Source: an uncultured Erysipelotrichaceae bacterium (GTDB lineage: Bacteria > Bacillota_I > Bacilli_A > RFN20 > CAG-826). From it: 64,000 nucleotides of DNA. Below are positions 6,121 through 53,731 of this stretch, piece after piece. The position numbers were made by a program, and so were the translations under genes. The notes under the pieces were generated by a model that worked only from the letters and a program-made list of their open reading frames with translations, ran no database searches and had not been told where the DNA came from. Each line of letters starts with the position of its first letter. The stretch's first letter is position 1. The stretch lies in contig CADAXQ010000001.1 in NCBI GenBank assembly GCA_902791935.1, positions 41,561 through 105,560 on the forward strand. The letters run 5' to 3'.

Positions 6121-6678
6121 ATGAACGTTACTGAATTACGTCCCGGAAACTACTTTGAGGACGAAAACACCCTTTACCAAGTCATCGACATCTTATTGAA
6201 CAAGACGGCCATGCGGAAGATGGTCGCAAAGGTGAAGGTCAAGAATGTTCGTACTGGCGCCATCACTGAAATTGCTCGTAACTCTGGTTATGATGTGGAA
6301 CTCGTGAGCATCACCAAGAAGAACATGCAATATCTCTATGACAGCGGCACGACCTTGGTTTTCATGGATCCAAAAACCTATGAACAAGTCGAACTTCCAA
6401 AAGCGAACCTCGAACACGAAATTCCTTATCTCGCCCCAAACGGCGAAATCGTCATGGTTTCGTATGAAGACGAAATCCTCGGTATCGAACTTCCTGCCAA
6501 AGTTGCCTTGGAAGTCGTTGAAACCGAAGCTGGCGTCCGTGGCGACACCATCAGCAATGGTGGCAGCAAAGACGCGAAACTCGAAACTGGTTTAGTCATT
6601 CGTGTTCCTCTCTTCATCAACGTTGGTGAAAAAGTCCTCGTTGACACGACGACTGGCAAATACGACAAGAGAGCATAA
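6121..6678 (+). CDS. efp: translation elongation factor P
   Basis: Full-length colinear similarity to EF-P, including the C-terminal GDTxxGGxKxAxLETGxxxxVPLFI block. AAGGAG SD lies upstream. Confidence 0.95.
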   Translation: MNVTELRPGNYFEDENTLYQVIDILLNKTAMRKMVAKVKVKNVRTGAITEIARNSGYDVELVSITKKNMQYLYDSGTTLVFMDPKTYEQVELPKANLEHEIPYLAPNGEIVMVSYEDEILGIELPAKVALEVVETEAGVRGDTISNGGSKDAKLETGLVIRVPLFINVGEKVLVDTTTGKYDKRA

Positions 6679-6681
6679 GCC

Positions 6682-6903
6682 ATGTCCCTCGAAGTTTGGC
6701 AGTTTGTTCTCTACATTATCCTTGCTTTAATCGTTGGCTTAGTTGGTGGATTCTTTGGCGCTCGGGCCTTAATTAAGTACCAGTTGAAGAAGAACCCTCC
6801 AATCAACGAGAAAATGATTCGCGCGATGTTTGCCCAAATGGGTCGGAAGCCATCAGAAGCTCAAGTCCGCGCCGTCATGAACTCGATGACGAAGAACCAA
6901 TAA
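6682..6903 (+). CDS. UPF0154/YneF-family small membrane protein
   Basis: 73 aa with one N-terminal TM helix, then the conserved block NPPINEKMIRAMFAQMGRKPSEAQV typical of YneF/UPF0154. Confidence 0.85.
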   Translation: MSLEVWQFVLYIILALIVGLVGGFFGARALIKYQLKKNPPINEKMIRAMFAQMGRKPSEAQVRAVMNSMTKNQ

Positions 6904-7313: not shown

Positions 7314-8045
7314 CTATTTCCAATCGACTTGTTTTTCTTGTCCTTTTTTGATTCTTTGGATGTTAGAAGCGTGGCGGATCCAAACCAAAATGCAGATGGC
7401 CATTAAGACTACTGCCCGTTCCCAACCATAGAAGTTACCGCCGTAAGGAAGTGGGCCTGCGCCGAAGTTCCACATGAAGTAAGTGAGTTTATTTTGGCTC
7501 CAAATCGTGACGCCATACATCAACCATTCAAAGAGGACTGTGGTGGCGCTTAACGTTAACGTCGAAATCGACATGACTTTTGTTTTCTTGAATAACGGGA
7601 AGAAGGCCACAATACCGAATGCCGAAGAAAGCCAGCTTGTTCCGAATGCCGCCCCGGAGAAGCAGGCAACCGCTTTGCCACCCTGGAACTTCAGCCAAGG
7701 GGAGAAACAATGGCCAAACGCCGCAAAGAACAACGCCAAATAGTTGTAGAAAATGCCGTCGTCCCATAGCGTGACGGTGTTTCGTAATCCTGAGTAGGAG
7801 AGAATCGCCCAGATGGTCCAATACACGACAGCGGTCTTCAAGGCATCCATCACAATCGTAATCACGCCGATTTTTTTGCCAAATACCCGACCCGTATTCG
7901 TTCCCCCGGAATTGTGGGATCCATATTTTCTCGGATCGTCATGAAAGAAAATGTGACCGATGATGATGCCGTTAGGAATGCTTCCAACCAAATAGCCAAA
8001 CACACAGAATACGACGGCAACCAATATGTTGTACCCAATGCTCAT
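7314..8045 (-). CDS. plsY: glycerol-3-phosphate acyltransferase PlsY
   Basis: Polytopic membrane protein with the PlsY motifs GSIPNG and SHNSGGTNTGR. It sits next to parE as in Bacillus/Staphylococcus. Confidence 0.9.
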   Translation of the reverse strand: MSIGYNILVAVVFCVFGYLVGSIPNGIIIGHIFFHDDPRKYGSHNSGGTNTGRVFGKKIGVITIVMDALKTAVVYWTIWAILSYSGLRNTVTLWDDGIFYNYLALFFAAFGHCFSPWLKFQGGKAVACFSGAAFGTSWLSSAFGIVAFFPLFKKTKVMSISTLTLSATTVLFEWLMYGVTIWSQNKLTYFMWNFGAGPLPYGGNFYGWERAVVLMAICILVWIRHASNIQRIKKGQEKQVDWK

Positions 8046-32062: not shown

Positions 32063-33619
32063 TTATATCGCACGTTCCGCCATTAAATCGAGGCTTTCTT
32101 CCCCTTTGAATTCATTCCGTTTCATCGTGAGTAATAACGAAACTTTCTCATCGGGTTCAAACGCGTCTTGCCCTAAAGAGAACGAAAGAATCTTCGTATC
32201 GTTCGTGAGACGCACACAAAGATACTTCCCTTCTTTTAAATAGGTAAACGTCGTTGGATTTAACCCATCAAGCCGGAATTTTGGGGCTTCCCATTCCATT
32301 CCGAACGGGGCGAATGTCCGTAAGATCCGGTAAGAGGTCATATTGCATTCATTTAAAGCAATCGGAATGGCTTCTTTTTTCTTCGGGGCCAATTTATGTT
32401 TTAACGCAGAGAAAATGAAATCTTTTTTAAAAGAATCGAAATCGCTTTCTTTGATGGTGCAACCAGCCGCAAACGCATGCCCGCCTTGATGTAAGAACGA
32501 CGTTTTCGCTTCTTGGAATGCCTTTAAGATGTCAAAGCCTTCTTTGGAACGTAACGAGCCAACGAGATATCCTTTGTTCTTTTCGTCCAAAGAAAAGACC
32601 GCAATCGGTTTGTCATATTGGCTAAGTAGTCGTCCCGCCAATAAGCCATTTAATCCTTCCGGAAGACTGCTTTTTACGACAATCGCGGCATCTTCGGGAT
32701 GAATTTCTAAGGAATCGGCCGCTTGTTTCGTCAGCTCTTTCCGTTTCTCATTCACTTCATTGATCCAAGCTGCCCGTTTTTCTTGATCGGCGGAAAACGG
32801 CGTCGGTTCAGAGAAATAATGAAGCAGTCGATTGATGGTCGTTCCCGTTTCATAACGGCCAATGGAATTGATCTTTGGAATAATCTCTAATTGGAATGTG
32901 CTTTCATCCAGTGTCGTTTGACTGGTTAAAGCCTTAATTGTCGGGTAATCCTTATGATTCACTTCTTCTAGCATCAAACGGACAATCACGCGGTTATAGT
33001 CGCGAAGTGGCATTAAATCGCTTAAGGTAGAGATGGCCCCTAAACACATCAAATAAGGGTCGACCGTTTGCAATAACGCTTTCGAAAACACGAAAGAAAG
33101 ATAGCCTGCAGAAATCGGGACATCACCATAAGCCAAGGCGGTAGGATGAATCAAAACGTCAGCTTCGGGGGCGGTTTCATCCATTTCATGGTGATCTAAA
33201 ACAATCACTTTCATGCCGAGTGCTTTGGCTTTTTGAAGCGCTTCATGAGCCGTCACCCCATTATCACAAGTCATGATGGCGGAGAATCCCTTCTCGTGGA
33301 TTTTCTCGACATTTTTGGCATTTAAGCCATAGCCATCTAAATAACGCGATGGCAAATAACCGGCGACAGATAAGCCAAAATGTCTTAGCGCCGCGACTAA
33401 AATCGAGCAAGACATGACGCCATCGGTATCATAGTCGCCATACACAAGAATCCGTTGTTTCTTGTCGCGAAGTTCTTGTATTAAAGCAATAGCCTTTTTC
33501 GTGTCTTCCTTATCATCAATCCATGGGATAGACGAAAGCGAAGGGGCGAGCGTTAATTGCTCATAATCCCCTTCGCTCAAATCGTAATATTGGCAGAGTC
33601 TTTTGACGAAAGAATCCAT
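32063..33619 (-). CDS. recJ: single-stranded-DNA-specific exonuclease RecJ (short form)
   Basis: DHH motifs (GDYDTDGV, DNGVTA, VLDHH) and DHHA1 GGHAFAAG. The secDF-recJ-rel order is as in Bacillus. Confidence 0.9.
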   Translation of the reverse strand: MDSFVKRLCQYYDLSEGDYEQLTLAPSLSSIPWIDDKEDTKKAIALIQELRDKKQRILVYGDYDTDGVMSCSILVAALRHFGLSVAGYLPSRYLDGYGLNAKNVEKIHEKGFSAIMTCDNGVTAHEALQKAKALGMKVIVLDHHEMDETAPEADVLIHPTALAYGDVPISAGYLSFVFSKALLQTVDPYLMCLGAISTLSDLMPLRDYNRVIVRLMLEEVNHKDYPTIKALTSQTTLDESTFQLEIIPKINSIGRYETGTTINRLLHYFSEPTPFSADQEKRAAWINEVNEKRKELTKQAADSLEIHPEDAAIVVKSSLPEGLNGLLAGRLLSQYDKPIAVFSLDEKNKGYLVGSLRSKEGFDILKAFQEAKTSFLHQGGHAFAAGCTIKESDFDSFKKDFIFSALKHKLAPKKKEAIPIALNECNMTSYRILRTFAPFGMEWEAPKFRLDGLNPTTFTYLKEGKYLCVRLTNDTKILSFSLGQDAFEPDEKVSLLLTMKRNEFKGEESLDLMAERAI

Positions 33620-36336
33620 CAGTCATTAATTCCGATAAAGATGGCTTCTTCCGGTTCGCTGCTCTTTTTCTTTTGCTGGCTCTTCTTCGAACGCGGACGA
33701 TTCGCCCAAGAAGTCCGGACCGAGCGAGCGGCGACGTCTAAGCCGAGGCTTAATTGCACCGAGTAAGATGGCAACAATGTCAAAACGAGGGCAAGTGCTA
33801 CCAAAATACCGATGGCAGCGCCTAAGAAGATCATGCGGTCCACTTGTGGCGCAATGGCGAGGAAAGGCAAGCAAATTCCGATGGCAGCTAACGTAGCCAC
33901 AATGGTATCCCCGGCACTTTGCGATCCAGCCGCCAGTAACATACTGTTCCGGAATGACAAAGCTTTCTTGTCTTTTTCGCGGCTATCTTTGATGAGTTCA
34001 CGTTCTTTGTTCAGCGGATAGAGTGCCAAATAGAAGCCCATCGCAACCGCAGCAATGATGCCAATGCCAGCAATCGGTGTCACGGCAAGACGCGTCAAAG
34101 CAAAGAATCCACCGACAATAACGCCACTCCCCATCGCGATAATCGAGGCAGGAAGTGAACGAGAGAGACGGAAACGTAACGCATAGTAAGCCATCAAGGC
34201 AATCGAGGCGATACCGACGGCTAAATAGACAGAACCCATGGTTGGGCTACCCGCTTCATAGGTCACACGGTTGGCGTTCACTGTAATTGCATCGGCATCC
34301 GCGTTCGTGTCAACCACTTCTTGAAGGGCTGTCGTGAGATAGGTTTCGCTACTTGTGCCATCGATGACAAATGGATAAACCGTTTCCGCATCGAAGTATT
34401 GCGTTAATGGGATTTGGAAGTGATAAACCGTGTATTGCACGACTTGCAGGCCATCGTTAATGGAAACCGTGGTGTTTTCTAACGAGATTTGGCCGTCAAT
34501 ATATTGCGTTAAATCCTTATCCTTATAGGTAATGTGGGACAAGAGATTGTCACGGACTTGATCTTGTGTTGAAAGCGTACGGGTACTTTGCGAATCCGTT
34601 TGCACACGATACTCTACGGCAATTGACGTCGTATTTTCGTAAGCACCGGCGTAATTGAATATGCCACCTTTCGAAGGAGCGAAAATCGACATGCCGATGA
34701 TGGATGCAAGGCAAAGCGCCCCGCCTGCAATTGCCCAAACTTTCTTGTGTTTGCCAAAGTCTTTGTCGGCATAAGGTCCAAAATACGTTTGTTTTTGTTC
34801 GGCCATTAAGTTCGGGACACGGCTTTCATCAAGGAAGTAAACCGAGCCAGGATGTTTTTCACAATCATTGTCGTTGGCTAACATCCAGCCTTCGAGCTTA
34901 CCAAGCGTGAGATTTAAGACGGTTCCGAAGAACACCGTCAAGATTAAAGAAAGGCCAAGTTTACCGACAGCGCCTGGGATTAAGCCATAAACGCAAAGAC
35001 CAACAATCAAGGAAACGATATTGGCGTCTAACATCGGCCAAACCGATTTCTTATAGGCTTCGGATTCGGCTTTCTTAAGCGTACGTCCCTTATACATTTC
35101 TTCTTTGAGCTTGGCGTAATAGTAGGCACCGCCAAACATCGTCACGCCGACCCCTAACATGAAGCCAACGATGGCACCGATACCAAACTGGGCGCCGAAA
35201 TAAGCAAAGAGAAGAATGCCAAATTCTAAGGCAAGGACGCCATTCGAAACGATGGAGAGCGCTCCCCAGTGATAGAAGAGAGCCAGCACAAGCGCCACAA
35301 CGCCGAGCGCAACGACGCAAGCAATCATCGTGGGTCCCCAATGGACCGATAAATGCCAGTCACTTGCTTTCGTTAAGGCGTCCACGGTTGCTGGAACTGT
35401 GACCGAGTAATCAAAAGTAATGTCGTAATTATATTCTTTGGCGTTTAGCACTGAGCAATAGTAAAGGGCAGCTTTATACGCAGCCCCAGCTTTGGAAGAA
35501 TCGAAATTCCCATTTTTGATGGCGTCAGAGTTCGGCACCAATTGGAATTTCTTGTAGTTGTTATTCTCGTTGCTGGAATCCACATACCAAGCATTCGCGG
35601 CACTTTCGCCGAAAATCAAACGTTTGGCCATGTTGGGATCATAGTCATCAGAAGACGTATTGGTCGCCGCAAGATAGTTGTCGCCTTCTTGCATATGGTT
35701 CCAAAGAACGATGTAGGAGTAAGACGCTTCGGTCGAGGCCGAGGAGTCGGCTTCGTGGGAATTATCCGAGGCGTATTTAATGAGTTCGTTTAATTCGCCT
35801 GTTTCGCCTTGGGCATTGACTTCAATCGTAACGACCGGGACGTTGTTGATATATTCAATTTGTGCTTCGTGGCCATCAAACATGGCGTTATCGCGGTAAG
35901 AAGCATGGGATGGGGCGCCTTTTTGAATGTCTTGGGTCGGGGCGCCGACGCCAATTGTGATATCTTGGCCAGAGAACGAAAGATAATCTTCAAGATAACG
36001 ATATTCCGTATCGTCTTGCGAGGCAGTACGCACCACGACTTTGATGGTGTCGTAGCCTTCTTTGTTCACTTCCGCTTCAATGTTCCAGTTCTCTAAGCGG
36101 TCTTTCATTTCTTCGGCGACTTCGTCCACCGCGCCATAACCATCGGTTTGTTGAATGTAGTTTTCAGTCAAAACACCATTGTAGGTCGTGTCTTTTTTCG
36201 AAATCTTAAAATACAACGCGCGACTGTCGCCATAGCTCACGTCGGTGTCCATCATCGTGACGGCTTTCCCCATGGTGGCCAAAGAGCCAAGCATTAACAG
36301 GGCGCTCGTCAGAATGTATCCCCATTTCCGTAACAT
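33619..36336 (-). CDS. secDF: fused protein-export membrane protein SecDF
   Basis: Large extracytoplasmic domain followed by two 6-TM SecD/SecF blocks. ATG at 36336 with GGAGGAACGAT upstream (MLRKWGYILTS...) is preferred over the ORF-track start at 36465, which would overlap the ruvB terminator. Confidence 0.88.
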   Translation of the reverse strand: MLRKWGYILTSALLMLGSLATMGKAVTMMDTDVSYGDSRALYFKISKKDTTYNGVLTENYIQQTDGYGAVDEVAEEMKDRLENWNIEAEVNKEGYDTIKVVVRTASQDDTEYRYLEDYLSFSGQDITIGVGAPTQDIQKGAPSHASYRDNAMFDGHEAQIEYINNVPVVTIEVNAQGETGELNELIKYASDNSHEADSSASTEASYSYIVLWNHMQEGDNYLAATNTSSDDYDPNMAKRLIFGESAANAWYVDSSNENNNYKKFQLVPNSDAIKNGNFDSSKAGAAYKAALYYCSVLNAKEYNYDITFDYSVTVPATVDALTKASDWHLSVHWGPTMIACVVALGVVALVLALFYHWGALSIVSNGVLALEFGILLFAYFGAQFGIGAIVGFMLGVGVTMFGGAYYYAKLKEEMYKGRTLKKAESEAYKKSVWPMLDANIVSLIVGLCVYGLIPGAVGKLGLSLILTVFFGTVLNLTLGKLEGWMLANDNDCEKHPGSVYFLDESRVPNLMAEQKQTYFGPYADKDFGKHKKVWAIAGGALCLASIIGMSIFAPSKGGIFNYAGAYENTTSIAVEYRVQTDSQSTRTLSTQDQVRDNLLSHITYKDKDLTQYIDGQISLENTTVSINDGLQVVQYTVYHFQIPLTQYFDAETVYPFVIDGTSSETYLTTALQEVVDTNADADAITVNANRVTYEAGSPTMGSVYLAVGIASIALMAYYALRFRLSRSLPASIIAMGSGVIVGGFFALTRLAVTPIAGIGIIAAVAMGFYLALYPLNKERELIKDSREKDKKALSFRNSMLLAAGSQSAGDTIVATLAAIGICLPFLAIAPQVDRMIFLGAAIGILVALALVLTLLPSYSVQLSLGLDVAARSVRTSWANRPRSKKSQQKKKSSEPEEAIFIGIND

Positions 36337-36427
36337 ATCGTTCCTCCGTGCCTCACCGAAAAAATCGGCTAGCAATGCGGTTATTATTTTACGCGCGCAC
36401 CCGTAGGGTGACAAGGGGAAAGACGAG

Positions 36428-36456
36428 AAAAGAAAAAGCCCCGTGAACGCGAGGCT
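36428..36456 (-). terminator. rho-independent terminator after ruvB
   Basis: Minus-strand AGCCTCG...CGGGGCT stem (one G-U pair) followed by TTTTTCTTTT. Confidence 0.65.
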
Positions 36457-36461
36457 CTGTA

Positions 36462-37472
36462 TCAAATTAAATATCCTTGATGAGGCAATCCCAAATGTTC
36501 TCTGGCTTTATTGGTGACTTCCCGACCTCTCGGCGTACGGTTAATCATCCCAATCATCACGAGATAAGGTTCGTAAACATCTTCTAAATTTGTGATTTCT
36601 TCGCCAATTGCAGAGGCAATAGACTCGATACCGACCGGTCCGCCATGGAAACGTTCAATGATGGTCCGAAGATATTTAATGTCCACATCATCCAAGCCAA
36701 GATCGTCGATTTTTAGGGCTTTCATCGTCTGGAGAGCGACTTCGCTATCAATATGATCTTTGCCTTCATAAGAAGCAAAATCACGGACGCGGCGGAAAAT
36801 GCGGTTCGCAATCCGTGGCGTGCCCCGACTTCTGGAAGACAAAATTGAGACGGCATCGGGATCAATCGGCATCTTGAGTACCTTTGAAGTCCGGGTGATA
36901 ATCAGACCGATTTCATCTTGCGAATAGAAATCGATTTTGGCAGAGATGCCAAAACGAGCCCGTAAGGGCGCGCTTAAATCGCCCGCTCTTGTCGTTGCAC
37001 CGACTAAGGTGAAAGGAGGTAAGGCCATATGTAATGGCTTCGCCGCCCCATCGCGGTTAATCATGATGGTTAACTCATAGTCTTCCATCGCGCCATAGAG
37101 CACTTCTTCCACGGGACGAGGCAACCGATGGATTTCATCGATAAAAAGAACGTCCCCTGGTTCTAATTCACAAAGTATCGCGGCTAAATCGCCCGTTTTC
37201 TCAATGGAGGGGCCATTGACGACTTTGATATTGCCACCCATTTCATTGGCGATCACGTAAGCCAATGTGGTCTTGCCTAAGCCAGGCGGGCCGTAAAGCA
37301 AAACATGGTCTAACGGCTCTTCCCGCTTTTTCGCGGCGCCGATAAAGACTTTAAGATTCCGCTTTAATTCGGATTGTCCGACATATTCTTTCAGATTTTT
37401 CGGACGTAACGTCAAATCCGTCGAAAGATCTTCGGCTTCCGCATTGCCATCTACGATACGATTCTTGCTCAT
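36462..37472 (-). CDS. ruvB: Holliday junction helicase RuvB
   Basis: Walker A GPPGLGKTT, DEIHRL, 336 aa. It overlaps ruvA. Confidence 0.97.
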   Translation of the reverse strand: MSKNRIVDGNAEAEDLSTDLTLRPKNLKEYVGQSELKRNLKVFIGAAKKREEPLDHVLLYGPPGLGKTTLAYVIANEMGGNIKVVNGPSIEKTGDLAAILCELEPGDVLFIDEIHRLPRPVEEVLYGAMEDYELTIMINRDGAAKPLHMALPPFTLVGATTRAGDLSAPLRARFGISAKIDFYSQDEIGLIITRTSKVLKMPIDPDAVSILSSRSRGTPRIANRIFRRVRDFASYEGKDHIDSEVALQTMKALKIDDLGLDDVDIKYLRTIIERFHGGPVGIESIASAIGEEITNLEDVYEPYLVMIGMINRTPRGREVTNKAREHLGLPHQGYLI

Positions 37473-41462: not shown

Positions 41463-42167
41463 CTAGGCGTTACGTCTACCAGTTTCCTTTCGATCAGGAA
41501 CGAGTAATGCATTCTCCCGAAACGAGAAGTATGCCTCGCGGGAAAGGATGAGATGATCTTGCAAAGAAACGCCAATCACTTTGGCACGCTTAGCAAGATC
41601 GATGGTGTAAGTCACTTCCCCTGGCGAAGGCAAGACACTTCCAGAGGGATGGTTATGAAGAAGCATAAATGACGCAAAGTTCGGATCGTTTAATTCCGAT
41701 AGAACGCTTCTTGGGGAGGAAGAGACGTGTTCTTCGCTCCCTTCGAATAAGAGCCGTTCTTGGCAAAGCCGGCCCCGCCTATCGAAGCAAAGCAATACGA
41801 CGCTTTCGCGTTTCTTCGCGCCTAAGGTCAAGCGATAATGGTCAAAGATTTCTTGCGGATCTAGCGGATTCGTGTATGGTTGTCGCCTTTCTTTGCGGCG
41901 TGCCACTTCAAAGGTGGCGCTAAGCCGTTCGGCTTTCGCTATAGAGATGCCTTTGATCTTTCGAAAATCGGCACCCGTCAACGTTGATAACGTCGCAAAA
42001 TCGTGATACGTCGTTAAAATCTCTTCGGCCAATTCCAGCACATCTTTTCCGGCGTATCCATTGCCAAGCAGCAAGGCAAGAAGCTCGCTGTCAGACAAAG
42101 AAGATATGCCTTCTTTTTTGGCTTTCTCTCTTGGCCTAGACGCCAATGGCAAATCCCGAAGTTTCAT
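41463..42167 (-). CDS. radC: RadC-like JAB-domain protein
   Basis: N-terminal LPxxxRPREK, then an HhH region, then the C-terminal JAMM motif LLHNHPSGSVLPS. The start at 42167 forms an ATGA overlap with the upstream small ORF. Confidence 0.9.
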   Translation of the reverse strand: MKLRDLPLASRPREKAKKEGISSLSDSELLALLLGNGYAGKDVLELAEEILTTYHDFATLSTLTGADFRKIKGISIAKAERLSATFEVARRKERRQPYTNPLDPQEIFDHYRLTLGAKKRESVVLLCFDRRGRLCQERLLFEGSEEHVSSSPRSVLSELNDPNFASFMLLHNHPSGSVLPSPGEVTYTIDLAKRAKVIGVSLQDHLILSREAYFSFRENALLVPDRKETGRRNA

Positions 42168-45257: not shown

Positions 45258-46391
45258 CTAGCCTTTTTTCGGCAAGAAGAGACCAAGCAAAACCTCGCGT
45301 TCTTCCTTGCTTCCGCCCGCGTGATGGGCTTTTAATGGATGGGGGTTAGGCTTATCTAGCGAGTTCAATAACGAGGTTTTCTTGCAAGCCAGCGCTTGGA
45401 AATCCCCGATGAACTCTTCGAAATGAGCGTTCGGCGTTCCTTCCCCGAAGTAGCCATTTTGGAGCACTTCTTCTTTGGTGAACAACTGAAAGTCAGGGAA
45501 ACGCTTACGGAACTCCGTAGCAAAGAATTCCTTCTTCTCTGGTTTTACCCAGAAAGTGGCATTTCTTCCTTCGATGCACATCGGGCGCGTCAAACATTGG
45601 GCCAACGCCGGATAAGCGGCCAGATCTTGATAAGTCACGTCGATTAAGCCATGATCGGCCATCGTGAAAACCAAGACATCGGGATTTGCTTTCGCAAAGC
45701 GCCGAAGCATGCGGTTGATGGAACGATAATCATGCCACGCCCAAGGGCTCTTCACCCCGTGGTGATGCAAATCATGATCGGGCAAGGTCGAATAAGAATA
45801 AAGGAACTCACCACCTTCTTCTTGAAAGAAATGTGTCGCCTGGATGCCCATTTCTCGGATGGATTTAGGCGCCCCTTCTCCCCCGACGGGGGCCACATAA
45901 GAAAGTTTCGCTTTGACGCCGACTTGTTGTAGTAACGTATCAAGCATGACTTTCGGGCAATACGTCTCCATATAGCTTTTCTCCCCAGAAGGCACTTTTT
46001 CCTCGGTGAGAGAGTTGCGGTTCGGGAACACGTCCACGGGATAGCCTAGTTTCTCCATATATAAGGACCAGCCAAGCCAGCCGGTTTCGCAAGGCCACTT
46101 CGCGGTCAAAAATGCCGTGGTAGCCGCCACCGTGGTTGGCGGATTCGTGCTTTGAATGGTATGAAACGCATGAGCAAGCAAGAAACGATTGGTTCTCGGA
46201 TATAAGGAAAGGTTATATTTGCCAGCCCCATCAAAGAGGAAAACGCAGATTTTTCGGTGTCCTTCTAAGACTTTATCCACGGCTTCGCAGGTGGGGTGAA
46301 ATGGCGTTACGCCGTAATGCTTTAATAAGGAGTTCGAAAAGCCCACTAAGCTGTCACGACGTTCAAAAAATGATTCAGGGTAATGATTCAT
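45258..46391 (-). CDS. alkaline-phosphatase-superfamily enzyme (type I phosphodiesterase/nucleotide pyrophosphatase-like)
   Basis: Metal and nucleophile motifs FLFDGAG, NPPTTVAATTAFLT, DHDLHHHG, MADHG. The start at 46391 (MNHYPE...) is chosen because the longer ORF-track form overlaps the upstream permease gene. Confidence 0.75.
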   Translation of the reverse strand: MNHYPESFFERRDSLVGFSNSLLKHYGVTPFHPTCEAVDKVLEGHRKICVFLFDGAGKYNLSLYPRTNRFLLAHAFHTIQSTNPPTTVAATTAFLTAKWPCETGWLGWSLYMEKLGYPVDVFPNRNSLTEEKVPSGEKSYMETYCPKVMLDTLLQQVGVKAKLSYVAPVGGEGAPKSIREMGIQATHFFQEEGGEFLYSYSTLPDHDLHHHGVKSPWAWHDYRSINRMLRRFAKANPDVLVFTMADHGLIDVTYQDLAAYPALAQCLTRPMCIEGRNATFWVKPEKKEFFATEFRKRFPDFQLFTKEEVLQNGYFGEGTPNAHFEEFIGDFQALACKKTSLLNSLDKPNPHPLKAHHAGGSKEEREVLLGLFLPKKG

Positions 46392-46455
46392 AGCGGGATA
46401 TCTTAAGGGAAAAAAACCGGTTTCGCAAGCGGAATTATCTTCCTTTTTTCGCGAT

Positions 46456-47373
46456 TTAACGAAGGTCGACTTTACGGAACTTGAAGATGCCGGCAAAAAG
46501 GGTGATGGCGGAAGCAAGAACGATCTCCACTCCCGCGACCATGGACAAATAGCCATTGCGGTCAGCGTGGGTGACCCACTCGCCGTCTTTGGTGATTTCA
46601 TAAACGCAGGATTGCGAAAAAGAAGAAAAAGAACGAATCCAAAAATGCGGCAGCCAAACTTCAAGAAGGAACGGGAACTTCCGTTCGTGCGCCTCGATGC
46701 TTTTGCCTCCCAAAGAGAAGAAAACCATGCCGACGACAAACAAAATCAGAAACACCACCGCGCCAAAAATGACGCCGATCCAGCCGTTATGAAAATTGGC
46801 GCAGGCTGAAAAACAAATGAGATAACAGACAAGATACACCAAAAAGGTCATCGCTAAGCTTTGTAAGAAGATCCACTTCTCTTGCGAGGCAGGAAGCGAA
46901 TCAGAGTATGACGCATTGTTTCCAAGCGGAAAACCCATCTCGGGGCAAAAAGGAACCTTTAAAAGGAGGGCAAGCAAGGTGGCAAGAAGTTGGAAGGCAA
47001 GAACGAGGCTGATGGCCAGGACAAAACCCGCCAAAGCCATAGAAAGAAAAATCTTCGTTCTGCTTTTGCCAGATAGGGCCTGGCTTTTGATGGTGCCCGT
47101 TCGGAACTCCTCCCCCACGAACACAATGGCAAACCCGATGGAGAACAAAAAGAATGGATAGGGAGGGACGAAAGTAACGGAGCGAATGCTTTCGCTGGAA
47201 AAGATTTGCATGCTAAAAGGCAAAATCAAAAGATTGGCAATGCCGATCGTTCCTTTAAAAATAGTCGTCGCAAGAATGGCGAAAACAATACCAAGCGCTC
47301 CAAAAAGAGCGAAAGCAATCCAATAGGCAACGCTTTTTCTCATGCGAAACAGGATTAATTTAAGGCTATTCAT
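46456..47373 (-). CDS. ABC-2-type transporter permease
   Basis: 305 aa with about 6 TM helices. It overlaps the ATPase gene by 8 nt. Confidence 0.8.
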   Translation of the reverse strand: MNSLKLILFRMRKSVAYWIAFALFGALGIVFAILATTIFKGTIGIANLLILPFSMQIFSSESIRSVTFVPPYPFFLFSIGFAIVFVGEEFRTGTIKSQALSGKSRTKIFLSMALAGFVLAISLVLAFQLLATLLALLLKVPFCPEMGFPLGNNASYSDSLPASQEKWIFLQSLAMTFLVYLVCYLICFSACANFHNGWIGVIFGAVVFLILFVVGMVFFSLGGKSIEAHERKFPFLLEVWLPHFWIRSFSSFSQSCVYEITKDGEWVTHADRNGYLSMVAGVEIVLASAITLFAGIFKFRKVDLR

Positions 47374-48359: not shown

Positions 48360-48920
48360 TTATGACAGTTTTAGCATCCCTGCGACTTTTTTTCGTAACA
48401 AAGCAGGATTGTCGTCTTTGGAAAAGAGAATGCGTTCATCCCCATAGGGGCGTTGTAACGCCTTTTGCTTTTCGCTTTGATTGGCTTTGTCGGCCTTTGA
48501 AAAGACCACTAAAGTCGGTATCGATTCTTTTTCTAAATAAGAAAATAACAAAAGATCATCCTCATTTGGTTCTAAACGGCAATCGAGCAAGAACACGCAT
48601 CCACGAAGCAGCGGATTCTCGAAATAACGTTCCATCATGGCGCCAAAAGCGTCGTCTTCTTTTGACCCATAATGCGTATAACCATATCCAGGCGAATCCA
48701 CCAAATAAAAGGCATCATCGATCAAAAAATAATTCAAATAACGGGTTTTGCCGGCGCGTTTCGAAGAATAGGCCAGCTTTTGCCCCGTTAGAGTATTAAT
48801 CAAGGAAGATTTCCCAACATTGGAACGACCGACAAAAACCAATTCTGGAAGTTTGTCTTTCGGCCGATAGTCCAACGACGGGGCAGAAATGATATAACGC
48901 GCTTTTCGAAAATCGATCAT
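48360..48920 (-). CDS. engB: ribosome-biogenesis GTPase EngB/YsxC
   Basis: G1 GRSNVGKSSLIN, G3 DSPGYG, G4 SKADK, 186 aa. It lies downstream of lon as in Bacillus. Confidence 0.93.
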   Translation of the reverse strand: MIDFRKARYIISAPSLDYRPKDKLPELVFVGRSNVGKSSLINTLTGQKLAYSSKRAGKTRYLNYFLIDDAFYLVDSPGYGYTHYGSKEDDAFGAMMERYFENPLLRGCVFLLDCRLEPNEDDLLLFSYLEKESIPTLVVFSKADKANQSEKQKALQRPYGDERILFSKDDNPALLRKKVAGMLKLS

Positions 48921-49048
48921 GCTTAGATTATAGCAAAAAGGAGTACGTTTTTTTAAAAGGTCACAAGCTTTGAAGTGATGAATGGTTTCATTCTCACCTC
49001 GCTGAAATCGCTAAATCATCGCCGTTTAAATTTGACTTGTTCGGTTTG

Positions 49049-49259
49049 TCAATAGACCCCATGCCTATGGACCTTGTATTTTTTCCCGTTAAGCTCGATG
49101 TACTCCAATGGGTGTATCCTCAAAGTGCCAAGGATAATAATCATAGGAATCAAGATGCACCAACACATAGTATTTCTCGTGCTTAGCCATAATAAAGCAA
49201 GTATCGGGCTGTCCCATTTGGTCCCATCCTTCCCTTTTATCGTAGCAAAATGTAGACAT
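49049..49259 (-). pseudogene. decayed paralog of the 100-aa partner gene (internal deletion plus frameshift)
   Basis: The ATG at 49259 gives MSTFCYDKREGWDQMGQPDTCFIMAKHEKYYVLVHLDSYDYYPWHFEDTPIGVHRA*. Compare MFTFCYDKKE...MARHEKYYVLAYLDPYDYVP in the intact copy. The C-terminal homology IELNGKKYKVHRHGVY* (compare IIELREKRYQIHRYSGE*) continues in another frame down to 49049. Confidence 0.75.
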
Positions 49260-49263
49260 AAGA

Positions 49264-49362
49264 TTACGAGTTACGGGGATAAGTTGTATATCCGCTATCG
49301 TTTTTGATATGCAAGAGTGCGAAGAGAGAGTTGGCGCGCTTGTTTAAATTGAGTTTTTTCAT
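49264..49362 (-). pseudogene. orphan 3' remnant of a paralog of the 457-aa gene (last ~26 codons only)
   Basis: Translation gives MKKLNLNKRANSLFALLHIKNDSGYTTYPRNS*. The intact gene ends ...PPYKRAHSLFGLLRIKGDGGYTTYPQKP*. DNA identity is obvious by eye, and the 4-nt stop-to-start spacing to the next ORF is the same. Confidence 0.75.
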
Positions 49363-49365
49363 TTG

Positions 49366-49668
49366 CTATTCGCCACTATATCGATGAATTTGATATCTTT
49401 TTTCGCGAAGTTCGATGATCGCGTAATTTGTCAGAATTTCAATTACTTTGGGATTCAATTCTGCACATAGTATGGCATCTTCTTCTTTGCTCTCTGGCTC
49501 CATGTCTTCAATAAGCGTATTTTTAAAATACAGCGGAACGTAATCATAAGGATCAAGATAGGCCAGAACATAGTATTTTTCGTGCCTGGCCATAACAAAG
49601 CAAAGACAAGACATATGCCAGAAGACATCTTCTTCCATTTCTTTTTTGTCGTAACAAAATGTAAACAT
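49366..49668 (-). CDS. 100-aa cytoplasmic partner protein of unknown family (candidate immunity/antidote)
   Basis: The ATG at 49668 lies 4 nt after the TAA of the upstream gene. There is no signal peptide or TM segment, and the C-terminal half is acidic. The start was chosen because the decayed paralog begins at the equivalent MxTFCYDK. Alternative starts are at 49707 (ATG) and 49731 (TTG). Confidence 0.75.
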   Translation of the reverse strand: MFTFCYDKKEMEEDVFWHMSCLCFVMARHEKYYVLAYLDPYDYVPLYFKNTLIEDMEPESKEEDAILCAELNPKVIEILTNYAIIELREKRYQIHRYSGE

Positions 49669-49672
49669 AACA

Positions 49673-51046
49673 TTACGGTTTTTGGGGATAGGTTGTATAG
49701 CCGCCATCGCCTTTGATTCGCAAGAGCCCAAAGAGCGAATGGGCCCGTTTATATGGCGGAGCTTCTATCCTCACGACCTTGTCGTCTTTCTTTTCTCCTA
49801 GATGGTAATGGTTCCACCCGAATAAATCGCCTTGGTCTACGGTCTTGTCATAGACAAGCAAGCTGTAATTACCATTGATTCGGTTAGAACCTAAGGCCAT
49901 CATCCTTTTAGCTTTGTTATTGTACCACGTGTAAGTGCAAACCCCGAAATCGTAAAGCTTGTTGTTGACAACAAAATCCTCGTCTACTTCCGCATAGCAA
50001 ATCCACCAGTGTTTTCCTTTTTCTTTAGCAGGATTCCCCATATGACCCATCAGCCATATTTTTTCGTTACGTCTGCTTTCGTCAGTAATGCTTTTCGCCA
50101 TATCCAGCGTGATGATTGTGTCGATGAATTCTAGTGTTCGCCCGCCAGCATTAACTCTTTTAGCGACTTTGGACTCCTCTCCTTTGGCCGCAGCATCGCC
50201 AAAGTAGGTATCAATGAGGGAAGAGAACAAGGTGAACTGTTCCTTAAACCAAGTTTTTATTTCTTCCATCTTTTGACTAATCGCAGCCCAATTCTCAACA
50301 ATGATGACAGTCAAAGCAACAAGAGCGCCCACAATCAACATCACGGCTAATGCCCATCCGATGAACGGAATCCAAGAAGCAGAGAGACCAACGGTCATGG
50401 TGGATATGCATGAAGTGAAGGCGGTAATGATCGTTTCACCAAGCCCTGCTCCAGAGAGGATTGCGACAATTCCAGCTGTGGCAGCCGCGGCAACTCTGGT
50501 AATGGTTGTTCCGCCTGAATCGATCGTCGGATGCAAGGGCATTATCGGATCAATGGGGTTCGTCGGTATAGTCGCATGGTTGTACTTCAAATCGATGTTA
50601 AGATCCTGATAGAAGCTGTGATTCAAAGTCACATAGCGGTCAAAATTATAGTCTTGACTTCTCAATGTTTCATATTTTTGAAGTTGCTCTGAGGTCAAGG
50701 ATGCTTCAAGATCGGTTTGATAATCATACATGACTTGGCTGAAATCTGGAGCTACATAGTTGATATCAAATTCAGGAAGTTCGATGGCTTCCTTGTCATC
50801 CACGTTCAAACCGGCAATGTTCAAATAATCAGGAAACTCATTTTGATAACTGTTTATGGCACGTTCAAACACAACCTCAGGATCTTCCGTGGTATCAAGA
50901 ACGTCGTTCATTGCTTTTTTGATGTTGCGAACCAGCTGCGTCTTTGTCTCATTTGCCTTTGCAACCGCATAGTTGCTATTTTTGCAAGCGGTCACAAAAG
51001 CGAATAAAACAGCCATTAAAGTAGCAAAAAACTTTTTAGACTTCAT
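49673..51046 (-). CDS. 457-aa lipobox-bearing multi-TM protein with an uncharacterised ~200-aa C-terminal domain (candidate toxin/effector)
   Basis: MKSKKFFATLMAVLFAFVTAC is a signal peptide plus lipobox. A domain of about 165 aa follows. Next is a hydrophobic block VAAAATAGIVAILSGAGLG-E-TIITAFTSCISTMTVGLSASWIPFIGWALAVMLIVGALVALTVIIV (2-3 TM helices). Last is a soluble C-terminal domain (…HWWICYAEVDED…GWNHYHLGEKKDD…KRAHSLFG…GYTTYP) with no family I can name. Confidence 0.8.
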   Translation of the reverse strand: MKSKKFFATLMAVLFAFVTACKNSNYAVAKANETKTQLVRNIKKAMNDVLDTTEDPEVVFERAINSYQNEFPDYLNIAGLNVDDKEAIELPEFDINYVAPDFSQVMYDYQTDLEASLTSEQLQKYETLRSQDYNFDRYVTLNHSFYQDLNIDLKYNHATIPTNPIDPIMPLHPTIDSGGTTITRVAAAATAGIVAILSGAGLGETIITAFTSCISTMTVGLSASWIPFIGWALAVMLIVGALVALTVIIVENWAAISQKMEEIKTWFKEQFTLFSSLIDTYFGDAAAKGEESKVAKRVNAGGRTLEFIDTIITLDMAKSITDESRRNEKIWLMGHMGNPAKEKGKHWWICYAEVDEDFVVNNKLYDFGVCTYTWYNNKAKRMMALGSNRINGNYSLLVYDKTVDQGDLFGWNHYHLGEKKDDKVVRIEAPPYKRAHSLFGLLRIKGDGGYTTYPQKP

Positions 51047-51267
51047 ACCATATCTCTCTTTTTTAATTTTAATTTATCATTTTTACTAAAATGCGTCAAT
51101 ATCACGAATACTGACAGCATACCGCCAAGCAAGAACGCATGCATAGGAAGCGAATTTTCGTAATTAGTGAGCAAAATTGACCTATGTCTGAATAAAAAGC
51201 CATATGTTCAAATCCAAAAAGCAAATCAAGACAACGAAAATTCATTCCATCATTGGCTATTTTCCAT

Positions 51268-51303
51268 ATAAAAAACCTCTGCTGTTTTGGGAACAACAGA
51301 GGT
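51268..51303 (-). terminator. strong rho-independent terminator after lon
   Basis: Minus-strand CCTCTGTTG...CAGCAGAGG (9-bp stem) followed by TTTTTTAT. Confidence 0.85.
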
Positions 51304-51340
51304 CATGAATTAGGATGAAGTAACCAAGTGGCAGGAATGT

Positions 51341-53731
51341 TTAAGCATTCGTCGCCGCTGGCTTGTTTTCGCTTGGTGTGACTGGCGTAGGTGCAGGGAC
51401 GTTATCCGGTCCAAAGAGATAAGGAAGCGCATCATCGACCTTCTTCATATAGACGATCTTTAAGCCCTTCTTCACTTCTTCGGGGAGTTCATCGACATCT
51501 TTGCGGTTTTCTTCCGGCACAATGATGGTCTTAATACCACTCCGTAAGGCCGCGAGGGATTTCTCCCGTAAGCCGCCAATCGGAATGACGTTGCCGCGTA
51601 ACGTGACTTCGCCAGTCAAGGCGACATTGTTATCCACGGGTTTGCCAGTCAAGGTCGAAAGAATGGCGCAAGTAATCGCAACACCGGCACTCGGGCCGTC
51701 TTTTGGCACGGCACCTTCTGGGAAATGCAAGTGAATCTCGTTCTTTTCGAACATCTCCGGTTGGATGCCATAACGGTCAGCGTTCGCCCTCACATAGTCC
51801 AGAGCAATCAAGCAGCTTTCCTTCATGACGTCCTTTAAGTTACCGGTCGTCACTAAGCCGCCTTTGCCTTGGAAATGCGTTGCTTCAATTGGCAAGATAT
51901 CGCCACCGAATTCCGTATAAGCAAGACCTGTCACCACCCCAACCTGCGGTTCTTTTTCTTTCTTGGTGTCTTCGAAGATTTCAACGCCAAGATACTTCCG
52001 AACTTGGGCGGCATCCACAACAATTGGTTTTGGATGCTCAGGGTTACGGATGAGTTCCACCACGGCTTTTCGGCAACAAGATGCGATCAAACGCTCTAAT
52101 TCACGAACGCCGGCTTCGCGGGTATAGAACTCAATGATTTCTTTTAACCCATCTTCAGGGAAAGTGATATCCCCTGCTTTTAAGCCGTTCGCGTTCATTT
52201 GCTTCTGCACCAAGAATCCTTCGGCAATCTTAAGTTTTTCAATCTCGGTATAAGACGGGACTTCAATCAGTTCAAGACGGTCGCGGAGCGGCGCAGGAAC
52301 GTTCTCAAGATAGTTCGCGGTCGCGATGAATAGAACATTCGACAAATCATAAGGTTCTTCGAGGTAGTTGTCGTTAAACGAGGAGTTTTGTTCCGGGTCT
52401 AAGACTTCAAGCAAGGCGCTCGAAGGATCGCCTTTGTAATTCGATCCGCCGACTTTATCGATTTCATCGAGCAAGAATACCGGATTCGTCACGCCAGCCT
52501 TCGTCATGCCTTGGATGATGCGGCCTGGTAAGGCGCCGACATAGGTTCTCCGATGGCCACGGATTTCCGCTTCGTCGGAAACACCGCCTAATGAGCACTT
52601 ATAGAACTTCCGTCCTAAGGCGCGAGCGATGGATTTCGCTAACGAAGTTTTGCCACATCCCGGGGGTCCGTAGAAGCAAAGAATCGGGGCTTTGAGATTA
52701 CCCGTCGATTTCTTGACGGCAAGGTACTCAATAATCCGTTTCTTGACTTTGTCGAGACCGTAATGGTCTTCGTCCAAAATCTTTTGCACGTTGGCCAAAT
52801 CATCGTTGTCTTCGGTCTTTTGATACCATGGAACACCCAGTAACGTCTGGATGTAGTTCATGATGAGCGAGGATTCCAAAGACGCTTCGGGCATCATCTC
52901 ATAACGATGTAATTCCGATTTGACTTTGGCTTTGATGTTTTCGGGATAAGGGTTCTTCTCGATCTTTTGCCGAATGGCATCCACATCGTCTGCCGAATCC
53001 TTTCCTTCACCGAGTTCATCTTTAATCGCGCGCATCTTCTCCCGCAAGAAGTATTCCTTTTGGGATTGTTCGGCACGTTCCCGAACCGTTTCGTCGAGTT
53101 TTTCATCGATTTGGTTCAGTTGTTCTTGTTGTTTGACGGCTGCCAAAATGGCTTTCAAGCGTTCATTGACGTTCCCTTCGGATAAGAGCTTGATTTTTTG
53201 CTCCACCGAGAAAGGGAGATAGCCCGAAAGCGTATCGGCGATATCGGCTGGCGATCCGCCTCTTCCTAAAGAGTTAATGGCGCTCTTAGGGATATTTTGT
53301 CCGATGGACGGACTGTTCCCAATGGTAGTGACGATGTCGCGGATCAAGGTCACAATCTCGTTTTCGTCACCGGTCGTATCTTCAATTAACGTGCCATCAG
53401 CTAAATACGTGCCATTGTCTAAACGAATGTTACTTAACGCAACCCGTTTCGAGCCAATGACGCGAATTCGGATGGTATCGCCTTTTTCTTGATAATCGAC
53501 AATGCGGCAAAGCGCTGCGGTTGTATAGACATCTTCGGGAACTTTGATGTCATCTACTTTTTCATCTTTCTGAACGCCGACGAACAATAAAGAGTTCATC
53601 TGGTCGTGTGCGCGGCGTGCCGCCTCTTTGCTATAGGCCCGACCTGCTTCGATGGATTCGGTCATGTTTGGGAACACAACCAAGCCCTTCGTAATCAGGA
53701 AGGGAAGAGTTAAAGGTTCTTTGCTGTCCAT
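51341..53731 (-). CDS. lon: ATP-dependent protease Lon
   Basis: LON N-terminal domain, Walker A GPPGCGKTS, protease motif KDGPSAGVA, 796 aa. Confidence 0.97.
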   Translation of the reverse strand: MDSKEPLTLPFLITKGLVVFPNMTESIEAGRAYSKEAARRAHDQMNSLLFVGVQKDEKVDDIKVPEDVYTTAALCRIVDYQEKGDTIRIRVIGSKRVALSNIRLDNGTYLADGTLIEDTTGDENEIVTLIRDIVTTIGNSPSIGQNIPKSAINSLGRGGSPADIADTLSGYLPFSVEQKIKLLSEGNVNERLKAILAAVKQQEQLNQIDEKLDETVRERAEQSQKEYFLREKMRAIKDELGEGKDSADDVDAIRQKIEKNPYPENIKAKVKSELHRYEMMPEASLESSLIMNYIQTLLGVPWYQKTEDNDDLANVQKILDEDHYGLDKVKKRIIEYLAVKKSTGNLKAPILCFYGPPGCGKTSLAKSIARALGRKFYKCSLGGVSDEAEIRGHRRTYVGALPGRIIQGMTKAGVTNPVFLLDEIDKVGGSNYKGDPSSALLEVLDPEQNSSFNDNYLEEPYDLSNVLFIATANYLENVPAPLRDRLELIEVPSYTEIEKLKIAEGFLVQKQMNANGLKAGDITFPEDGLKEIIEFYTREAGVRELERLIASCCRKAVVELIRNPEHPKPIVVDAAQVRKYLGVEIFEDTKKEKEPQVGVVTGLAYTEFGGDILPIEATHFQGKGGLVTTGNLKDVMKESCLIALDYVRANADRYGIQPEMFEKNEIHLHFPEGAVPKDGPSAGVAITCAILSTLTGKPVDNNVALTGEVTLRGNVIPIGGLREKSLAALRSGIKTIIVPEENRKDVDELPEEVKKGLKIVYMKKVDDALPYLFGPDNVPAPTPVTPSENKPAATNA

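Follow-up and report, generated by a model that had tools for sequence, protein, structure and literature searches.

We examined a pair of adjacent genes, here called gene 1 and gene 2, that lie between lon and engB in a 64,000-nucleotide (nt) stretch of an uncultured Erysipelotrichaceae bacterium (GenBank assembly GCA_902791935.1, contig CADAXQ010000001.1, forward-strand positions 41,561 to 105,560). The whole of this stretch is referred to below as the window, and coordinates are those of the window unless a locus is named. Gene 1 encodes a protein of 457 amino acids (aa) and gene 2 one of 100 aa. Judged from sequence comparison and structure prediction, the two are probably the toxin and immunity genes of a hitherto unnamed family of polymorphic toxins from uncultured gut Bacilli. 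An initial annotation of the window had proposed a module of toxin/immunity type built on a lipid-anchored carrier. The module type finds support in a modular C-terminus, a subtype-matched partner, orphan units, a strain-variable cassette and a relative bearing the toxin domain Tox-PL-2, whereas the lipid anchor is not a trait of the family.

The gene 1 family was recovered as 67 homologous clusters of 430-470 aa, devoid of a Pfam domain or an informative name, in a word-indexed search, and as 137 representatives in an exhaustive profile search of a library of 1.8 billion sequences. Its hosts are uncultured gut Bacilli ('Mollicutes', Candidatus Onthovivens, Candidatus Enterosoma), presumably members of the GTDB order RF39. 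Comparison of family members divided the protein into two parts. Mean pairwise identity was 53% over residues 1-295 and 34% over residues 296-457, and single pairs diverged far more sharply: for P0013 and P0052 identity is 93% N-terminally and 23% C-terminally, and for P0008 and P0009 it is 46% and 84%, respectively. Identity collapsed within three residues of positions 290-293 in five independent pairs, just after the motif F-x-DA-x-A-Q-GE-E-S. The C-terminal diversification that the initial annotation had proposed to look for was found, with at least five subtypes exchanged independently of the carrier and four of them borne by a single carrier clade (≥70% identical). Distant proteins keep the membrane module described below and the junction but have other N-termini, and others have quite different C-termini. 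Carrier (the N-terminal ~290 residues) and effector (~165 aa) therefore behave as separate evolutionary units, which is the combination of conserved N-terminus and recombining C-terminus that characterizes polymorphic toxins (PMC3482391). The C-terminal domain had been put at about 200 aa; its variable part is in fact residues about 293-457 (about 165 aa), and residues 252-292 belong to the conserved carrier.

The gene that follows gene 1 varies together with the effector. A signal-less open reading frame (ORF) of 100-180 aa begins 0-20 nt past gene 1 in every locus with downstream DNA. A word-indexed search with gene 2 returned the identical protein only, so relatives were taken by their position in related loci. 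The family of gene 2, cl0, has short and long forms that match each other at 95% hhalign probability, and by hhalign it is unrelated to the other partner families. Among these, cl1 matched cl5 at 94% and cl4 at 42%, and its match to cl2 (75%) was confined to the N-terminal 26 residues; cl2, cl4 and cl5 gave no hhalign match to one another, and an N-terminal KFKxGDxV-like motif is common to cl1, cl2, cl4 and cl5. The A/B-type C-terminus occurs with cl0 (window, L001-L004, L006, L009, L011, L023, L093, L094), the C-type with cl2 (L007, L010, L015), the D-type with cl4 (L005, L020, L022, L090) and the E-type with cl1 (L008, L012, L014, L018, L089) or cl5 (L013, L016, L017). Partner family thus agreed with C-terminal subtype in 24/24 loci, a genetic linkage only, yet one that corresponds to the subtype-specific downstream immunity gene of described systems (PMC3482391). 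Since carriers are shuffled relative to C-terminal domains, the pairing does not merely reflect descent of whole cassettes. The C-terminal domain and the small gene behind it move as one unit relative to the carrier.

Orphan C-terminal/immunity cassettes, likewise typical of polymorphic toxins (PMC3482391), were found in the window (49089-49341) and in L011, L009, L002, L005, L006 and L094. Such orphan tails and partner genes are frequent in the family and accumulate downstream of gene 1. The order in L011 is gene 1(A), cl0, an E-type tail fragment with cl1, cl0, an A-type C-terminal fragment and cl0; L009 carries three cl0 copies, and extra non-cognate partners are present in L002, L005, L006 and L094. 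In the window, the degenerate spare copy noticed by the initial annotation proved to be such a unit: it repeats the last ~25 codons of gene 1, followed by the same 4-nt spacer and by a partner copy. Loci L025, L026 and L028 retain 87 nt more of this remnant (about 6600-6737) than do the window (49061-49107) and L024, and their second partner copy is near full length but frameshifted, with gene 2 residues 1-53 and 53-98 in two frames. The ATG of gene 2 (49668) lies 4 nt past the gene 1 stop, a spacing that suggests translational coupling. Gene callers start gene 2 at an upstream ATG (49707), giving 113 aa; alignments of homologues open at the 100-aa start.

The block between lon and engB is a strain-variable insertion. 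In the metagenome contig L029, whose tig and lon are 99.6% and 99.4% identical at the protein level to those of the window, only 59 nt separate the lon stop from engB, and the DNA can be aligned with the window precisely up to the lon stop (51341) and again from 48941, just before the engB -10 box. Lon adjoins engB also in four more distant relatives (L030, L031, L033, L035; lon 64-76% identical). These empty sites bear out the proposed insertion into a conserved lon-engB junction, and the absence of the cassette favours that proposal over one of core genes kept here by every relative. The cassette is present at lon-engB in contigs that other samples yielded for this species. Comparison of L029:3566-4622 with window 48382-51800 gave 87% identity for engB and 64% and 60% for two ABC-transporter genes, against 99% for tig and lon; this fall in identity places a recombination breakpoint exactly at the lon-engB junction that holds the cassette. 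In L025, a DDE_Tnp_1 transposase gene of an insertion sequence (IS) element (L025:3184-4434) lies between lon and gene 1, and gene 1 downstream of it is called 10 residues shorter (447 aa, P0001).

No homologue of gene 1 adjoining lon or engB was found in 22 genome loci and several long metagenome contigs. Instead, homologues follow ftsZ, lie between genes for tRNA modification and glycosyltransferase, or neighbour GmrSD and DNA methyltransferases, the last (a restriction/defence island) being the setting of the closest distinct homologue. One carrier clade has its cassette within a temperate phage, with an HNH endonuclease gene on one side and terminase genes on the other, whereas most copies are chromosomal and occupy ordinary housekeeping junctions. 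The cassette is thus an accessory insert whose place differs from lineage to lineage: various chromosomal junctions, a restriction/defence island, or temperate phages. On the IMG/VR contig L094 (829-10089) a pair of HNH and HExxH genes is present twice, once leading directly to amidoligase, GGCT and terminase genes and once to gene 1 (A/B type) with partners of cl0 and cl2, so that this contig shows the phage backbone in a cassette-bearing and a cassette-free form. The HExxH gene is a hydrophobic ORF of 122-128 aa with the motif HEYGH, located directly upstream of gene 1 in one carrier clade (L090:7573-7941, L015:6543-6929, L006:6430-6753, L010:6367-6753, L094:1203-1583 and 7367-7750), without a Pfam match and absent from the window. 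It might be a processing protease or a mere part of the phage backbone. Downstream of the D-type cassette of L090 (10192-12452) are an IS-like 293-aa ORF and short ORFs resembling fragments of tape-measure or LysM proteins.

The architecture of gene 1 was examined on an AlphaFold2 (AF2) model of the full-length protein (58 sequences; predicted local distance difference test score, pLDDT, 84.9; predicted template-modelling score, pTM, 0.80). The model has a signal-peptide helix, a low-confidence helix at 26-49, a helical domain at ~50-145 (about 100 aa), hydrophobic helices at 181-199, 204-223 and 231-251, amphipathic helices at 253-291 and an alpha/beta domain at 294-453. The linker at 146-180 is disordered and Pro-rich in the model and variable or deleted in aligned relatives. 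The N-terminus resembles a Sec signal peptide, and the carrier is made up of a Sec-type signal peptide, a predicted helical ectodomain, a Pro-rich linker, a tape-measure-like module and a junction helix ending in DAxAQGEES. This copy does contain the lipoprotein signal sequence that had been read from it (V-T-A-C at residues 18-21, conforming to the lipobox pattern [LVI][ASTVI][GAS]C), but a lipobox is present in only 2/58 family members, and position 21, Cys in this copy, is Gly in 40/58. Because so few homologues have one, the lipobox is not a property of the family; the lipid anchor is incidental, and a lipid-anchored carrier as a trait of the system is not supported. Four short proteins of 168-217 aa (P0097, P0104, P0110, P0114) join the signal peptide and the first 50-90 residues straight to the C-terminal domain, the membrane module being deleted; they could be decayed copies or secreted variants.

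Database scans returned little for any part of the cassette. Gene 1, gene 2 and the remnant, together with five partner families, had no Pfam, NCBIfam or PADLOC family match, NCBIfam giving only a sub-threshold hit to DS1_2 (E 0.09). A Pfam scan of 24 family members was also empty and hence revealed no LXG, WXG, Rhs or CdiA domain, in agreement with the earlier statement that these and other known delivery domains are lacking. The helical N-terminal domain (50-145) had no family match. Foldseek searches with full-length gene 1 yielded spurious helical matches only against PDB (best E 0.27) and, against BFVD, a 121-aa unknown protein at best (E 0.043).

The exception was the membrane module. 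Residues 183-273 matched PHROG tape-measure families, with phrog_28 matched by 18/24 family members (best E 6e-8). Every named PHROG family matched was a tape-measure protein; holins and membrane families of other kinds were absent from the matches, so that an effect of composition alone is unlikely, and PHROG returned nothing else for the cassette or for the five partner families. By hmmsearch of the 1.8 billion sequences, the family profile reached proteins with Pfam PhageMin_Tail or TMP_3 domains. The motif …(L/I)P.IG…AALIA(I/L)(G/T)V(L/I)…(K/Q)NWDxI…(W/F), which can also be written ..IP.IGW..ALIALTVIIV-NW(D)xI, is common to the gene 1 family and tape-measure proteins. On this evidence the membrane module derives from phage tape-measure proteins. 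Such proteins are expelled from the phage tail and are believed to pass into the host membrane from its outer side. In Tde1, a DNase of a type VI secretion system (T6SS), a tape-measure-like N-terminal hydrophobic region is needed to cross the inner membrane of the target (PMC10240207). The 65-residue block in which the initial annotation had seen two or three transmembrane helices is modelled as three, of which only the third is strongly hydrophobic: on the Hessa scale, helix 3 sums to -3.95 (a strong span) and helices 1 and 2 to +2.2 and +2.9 (marginal), with family medians in agreement. Helix 1 has five small-xxx-small motifs in this copy against a family median of 1, and a glycine zipper was for that reason dropped as a family feature.

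The C-terminal domain was modelled with confidence on its own (34 sequences including distant members; pLDDT 92.6, pTM 0.88). Foldseek comparison of this model with PDB gave a best E of 0.43 and a template-modelling score of at most 0.22, with no structural neighbour, and a profile of the domain retrieved only NKG2D from the PDB sequences (E 0.22, not significant). As previously claimed, the domain could not be placed in any family by Pfam, NCBIfam, PDB-sequence or Foldseek searches. Y372-T373, A379, H413-x-H415, H436 and G440 are nevertheless invariant even below 20% identity (58 full-length and 34 C-terminal-domain sequences). According to the DSSP string of the model, the HxH pair lies on one beta strand and H436 opens another, two strands later. 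The three histidines could have a metal-binding or catalytic role, and conservation of the triad and of YT…A below 20% identity suggests an active site rather than a variable binding face. Residues 346-385 (49892-50011), HWWICY…CTYTWYNNKAKRMM, recall the opening motif of C-type lectins, WICY…W.E.A..C; a C-type lectin domain was rejected, the NKG2D match being not significant and Foldseek lending no support. HNH/EndoVII, LAS/M23 peptidase, cupin, HIT, 2H phosphoesterase and BECR RNase were also considered and rejected, as none had search support and motif spacings or companion residues did not fit.

Related carriers bear at least four further C-terminal types without a Pfam match: YLGK…LCTxP…YAKEL..IH (P0140, P0142, P0148, P0157), VLCIGRD…LVTxPYYY (P0111, P0168, P0179), GKPHVHF…DGT.HD (P0187, P0200) and YYHFHD..H.IHVWYG (P0169, P0186, P0191). 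For P0111 no further relatives were found, and its neighbour, a 405-aa protein with weak LysM and trypsin-like matches only, was uninformative. In P0193 (346 aa), a distant relative, a related membrane module is followed by the polymorphic-toxin domain Tox-PL-2 of Pfam (papain-fold toxin 2; E 2.4e-15; 57 bits, the cut-off being 25); the N-terminus of this protein resembles an integrase or IS gene fragment fused by the gene call. Partial E-subtype tails occur in frame with a truncated ribonucleotide reductase (P0144, 490 aa) and a Big_2 lipoprotein (P0155, 368 aa). Both were considered as alternative carriers and set aside as probable remnants of recombination or gene calling.

These features suggest how the pair might work. 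The C-terminal domain would be an enzyme toxin acting in the cytoplasm, and the gene 2 product, made in the cytoplasm, would block it by binding. The tape-measure-like module would insert the protein into membranes and, since tape-measure proteins enter from the outer side when a phage infects, may take the toxin domain, or go with it, across the membrane of a neighbour. Orphan partner genes would protect against the toxins of other strains, and the remnant in the window would be what is left of a previous C-terminal-domain/immunity unit that recombination at the junction motif had pushed aside. Delivery would require vesicle or membrane-exchange transfer, self-insertion after release, or proteolytic processing, on which the upstream HExxH ORF of one carrier clade might bear. 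We know of no membrane-exchange machinery in these Bacilli. Membrane fusion permitted by wall-less hosts was set aside, most RF39-type Bacilli being predicted to have a wall (PMC10868615).

It is conceivable, though rather doubtful, that the tape-measure-derived module is itself a delivery or trigger device and the HxH…H domain a new enzymatic toxin fold. As a delivery device, gene 1 would be an integral membrane toxin with its C-terminus in the producer cytoplasm, reaching neighbours by membrane or vesicle transfer or by tape-measure-like self-insertion. As a trigger, the module would act as a decoy, assembling together with the tape-measure protein of a phage that injects its DNA and so linking DNA entry to release of the cytoplasmic effector.

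Several observations weigh against a toxin-immunity pair. Delivery is its weak point: a signal peptide followed by one strong helix, or by three, predicts an N-terminus outside and a C-terminus inside the producer, an arrangement that fits a signal-less partner and not a simple secreted toxin. The effector would thus be retained in the producer's cytoplasm, unlike an exported toxin; the positive-inside rule, applied to flanking charges, gave no clear orientation. Comparison of the loci revealed no conserved gene for a secretion or processing partner. Pfam, NCBIfam, PDB sequences and Foldseek recognized no toxin family or fold in the C-terminal domain, part of the association between subtype and partner is shared descent of whole cassettes, and several family copies are frameshifted, albeit in metagenome-assembled genomes. 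Finally, copies in prophages or beside restriction genes fit a role in defence as well.

That last point leads to a serious if unlikely rival, namely a self-acting, membrane-anchored module of toxin-antitoxin, abortive-infection or superinfection-exclusion type; the initial annotation had likewise named an effector/antidote defence module as an alternative. Here the carrier would sit in the host membrane with its C-terminal domain in the cytoplasm, restrained by gene 2, and on meeting the tape-measure protein of an injecting phage the membrane module would either block the injection channel or free the effector to stop the infection. The homology of the membrane segment to tape-measure proteins, a hydrophobicity sum favouring the N-terminus outside and the C-terminus inside, and partner proteins that lack a signal peptide would all be expected of such a module, and known exclusion proteins, lipoproteins or membrane proteins, act on tape-measure proteins, for instance Ltp of phage TP-J34. 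Prophage accessory copies between HNH and terminase genes, and the closest distinct homologue beside GmrSD and DNA methyltransferases, point the same way, but most copies occupy housekeeping junctions outside defence islands and PADLOC and defence-family searches gave no match. Moreover, a conserved carrier with displaced C-terminal tails and arrays of non-cognate orphan partners typify toxins exchanged between cells, not modules of the toxin-antitoxin or abortive-infection kind, and a conserved secreted ectodomain has no obvious role in a self-acting module.

A non-toxic variable surface or membrane protein (an adhesin, a receptor-binding or a phage-derived protein), with a ligand-binding C-terminus and a partner that serves as chaperone or regulator, is improbable. 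It would account for the lack of a toxin fold or family in the C-terminal domain, for its weak likeness to C-type-lectin motifs (NKG2D, E 0.22) and for the partial C-terminal tail fused to the Big_2 surface protein P0155. The lectin match is not significant, however, and this explanation is made less likely by the three invariant histidines and YT…A motif, which suggest an active site below 20% identity, and by cytoplasmic partners that, having no signal peptide, could not meet an outward-facing domain. Nor do orphan partner genes have a role as chaperones, and a related carrier bears Tox-PL-2. That the pair are core housekeeping genes of the lon-engB region has next to no likelihood: several metagenome contigs of the same species keep the cassette here, but it is missing from a strain whose tig and lon are 99% identical and from every more distant relative examined, and homologues in other genomes never adjoin lon or engB. 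A housekeeping role is excluded by these empty sites.

We compared the putative toxin-immunity pair with described systems. Among polymorphic toxin systems are some in which a Sec signal peptide precedes N-terminal domains specific to a lineage (Zhang et al. 2012, PMC3482391), examples being B. subtilis WapA/WapI and Neisseria MafB. The pair shares with the systems of that survey a conserved N-terminal trafficking region, an exchangeable C-terminus with a matching downstream immunity gene, orphan units and strain-variable presence. The pair differs from them in that gene 1 lacks Rhs, LXG, MafB, filamentous haemagglutinin or any other described carrier domain, in that its carrier holds an integral membrane module, in a junction motif (DAxAQGEES) and an HxH…H C-terminal domain that are not in Pfam, and in its host, an uncultured lineage of gut Bacilli. 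The family thus shows the three genetic hallmarks of polymorphic toxins without the fourth, a recognized toxin domain. What appears new here is the tape-measure-derived carrier, the junction motif, the effector domain and the immunity families.

Membership of known classes was considered in turn. For LXG toxins and type VII secretion (T7SS), no N-terminal LXG domain (Pfam, 24 members) and no conserved WXG100/EssC-type neighbours were found across the loci. For Rhs/WapA and CdiA, Pfam detected no Rhs/YD or haemagglutinin repeats, VENN or CdiB, and the protein has only 457 aa. The S8-PTS of Bacillota (PMC9424270) resemble the family in their Sec signal peptide, N-terminal non-toxic domain, polymorphic C-terminus and downstream immunity gene, but the gene 1 family has a membrane module and no family-wide partner gene; no subtilase was present in the precomputed Pfam lists of neighbours, and no BetaH domain was seen, a comparison made without a dedicated BetaH profile. 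MuF toxins (PMC3482391; PMC12226406) also form polymorphic toxin and immunity cassettes on temperate phages and have a phage-derived N-terminal module; they lack a signal peptide and are believed to travel inside the capsid, in contrast to gene 1, which has a signal peptide and a membrane module derived from a tail protein and is mostly chromosomal. Because their defining domains are absent, gene 1 is not a member of the LXG, Rhs/WapA, CdiA, MuF or S8-PTS classes. For known anti-phage defence and type II toxin-antitoxin systems PADLOC gave no match, although the function could still be defence-like. No description of the gene 1 family was found in the literature, within the limited library searched.

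The closest parallels concern the membrane module. Agrobacterium Tde1 (PMC10240207) likewise fuses a hydrophobic segment with tape-measure similarity to a toxin domain (in gene 1, a predicted one). Unlike gene 1, Tde1 is fired by the T6SS of a Gram-negative bacterium and has no signal peptide, and its hydrophobic region is N-terminal, short and of glycine-zipper type; the two were compared by description, and small-xxx-small repeats are strong in this copy of gene 1 and not in the family at large. With phage tape-measure proteins (PHROG 28, 58, 4200 and others; PhageMin_Tail, TMP_3) gene 1 shares the three-helix hydrophobic module and the NW(D)xI helix that follows it. Gene 1, in contrast, has 457 aa and a signal peptide, no long coiled coil and no PhageMin_Tail or TMP domains, lies outside tail gene clusters (phage copies being between HNH and terminase genes) and has a polymorphic C-terminus and a putative immunity gene. 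It contains a tape-measure module without being a tape-measure protein. SitA of myxobacteria (PMC5562445) is a membrane-tethered polymorphic toxin with cytoplasmic immunity, both of which are predicted here, and its delivery by transfer of membrane material, with no dedicated injection machine, offers a possible analogy for gene 1. The SitA proteins differ in being true lipoproteins of a diderm whose transfer is TraA/B-dependent, whereas a lipobox is found here in 2/58 members. The undescribed mode of delivery suggested by the initial annotation calls for qualification: the block is a recognizable tape-measure module, Tde1 offers a precedent for toxin translocation by a region of this kind (PMC10240207), and polymorphic toxins that are lipoproteins are known in SitA (PMC5562445).

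The identity of the pair would matter in several ways. If it is a toxin-immunity pair, a carrier built from a tape-measure membrane module would provide a testable idea of how a toxin might pass through the cytoplasmic membrane unaided by a specialized injection apparatus. For Gram-positive bacteria, knowledge of polymorphic toxins comes chiefly from T7SS/LXG, WapA/Rhs, MuF and S8-PTS, and to our knowledge no interbacterial weapons have been described in uncultured gut Bacilli with reduced genomes. The family would also add a confidently modelled effector domain with an invariant His triad and no detectable structural relative, and at least five new immunity families. The motif DAxAQGEES marks the swap point and can be used for mining metagenomes, and presence or absence of the cassette between strains 99% identical at tig and lon offers a handle on strain competition in gut metagenomes. 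Were the module itself a delivery device, it would represent polymorphic toxin delivery independent of secretion systems in Gram-positive gut bacteria, and were it a trigger, a new type of injection-sensing abortive-infection system. If the cassette instead serves defence as a self-acting module, it would be a rare case of a host protein that mimics the phage injection apparatus.

On the minus strand the order is tig, lon, hairpin, promoter-like site, gene 1, gene 2, remnant, engB promoter-like site and engB. ORFs and consensus scans confirmed the layout given by the initial annotation, that is, a 457-aa gene 1 and a closely following 100-aa gene 2 between the terminator-like hairpin of lon and the promoter-like site of engB.

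Table 1. Features of the lon-engB region of the window. Flanking genes were identified by Pfam matches.
Feature	Position	Strand	Basis or remark
tig	55386-53965	-	
lon	53731-51341	-	
Inserted block, 2.4 kb, strain-specific	48942-51340	-	Spans lon stop codon to engB -10 box; homology to cassette-free L029 breaks at 51341 and returns at 48941
Terminator-like hairpin after lon, 13-bp stem and T run	51274-51304	-	Consensus scan
Promoter-like site 5' of gene 1, TTGACG-17-TAAATT with TG extension	51071-51099	-	Consensus match only
Gene 1, 457-aa putative carrier and effector protein, stop codon included	49673-51046	-	ORF; AF2 full-length model
Gene 1 residues 1-21, signal peptide and lipobox V-T-A-C (this copy)	50984-51046	-	Sequence
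Gene 1 residues 50-145, conserved helical N-terminal domain, predicted extracellular	50612-50899	-	Column identity 0.5-0.66; helices pLDDT >90
Gene 1 residues 181-251, three-helix hydrophobic module homologous to phage tape-measure proteins	50294-50506	-	PHROG, hmmsearch, shared motif
Gene 1 residues 252-292, conserved amphipathic junction helices, recombination boundary, ending F-x-DA-x-A-x-GE-x-S	50171-50293	-	Identity drop in five pairs
Gene 1 residues 293-457, variable C-terminal putative effector domain, subtype A/B	49676-50170	-	Alignments, AF2 model
Invariant histidine codons	49739-49810	-	H413 49810-49808, H415 49804-49802, H436 49741-49739
Gene 2, 100-aa signal-less partner, family cl0, predicted cognate immunity protein	49366-49668	-	ORF
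Orphan remnant, gene 1 C-terminal tail with own stop codon	49264-49341	-	tblastn; 74% identical to residues 433-455
Degenerate second putative immunity gene, 56-aa ORF	49089-49259	-	53% identical to gene 2 residues 1-53
engB promoter-like site	48927-48956	-	Consensus scan; -10 box just within resumed homology to empty site
engB	48920-48360	-	

Elsewhere in the window, two large ORFs of 687 aa (2979-5042, plus strand) and 948 aa (33619-36465, minus strand) had no Pfam match at E 1e-5; their surroundings are housekeeping genes (gyrase/topoisomerase IV, dxs, transketolase, aspS, relA). A 493-aa ORF with a TTG start (45258-46739, minus strand) in the mechanical list overlaps an ABC permease gene (46456-47373, minus strand) by ~280 nt. 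Gene callers give a 377-aa product with a weak Phosphodiest match at this position, and the long TTG start is therefore probably wrong.

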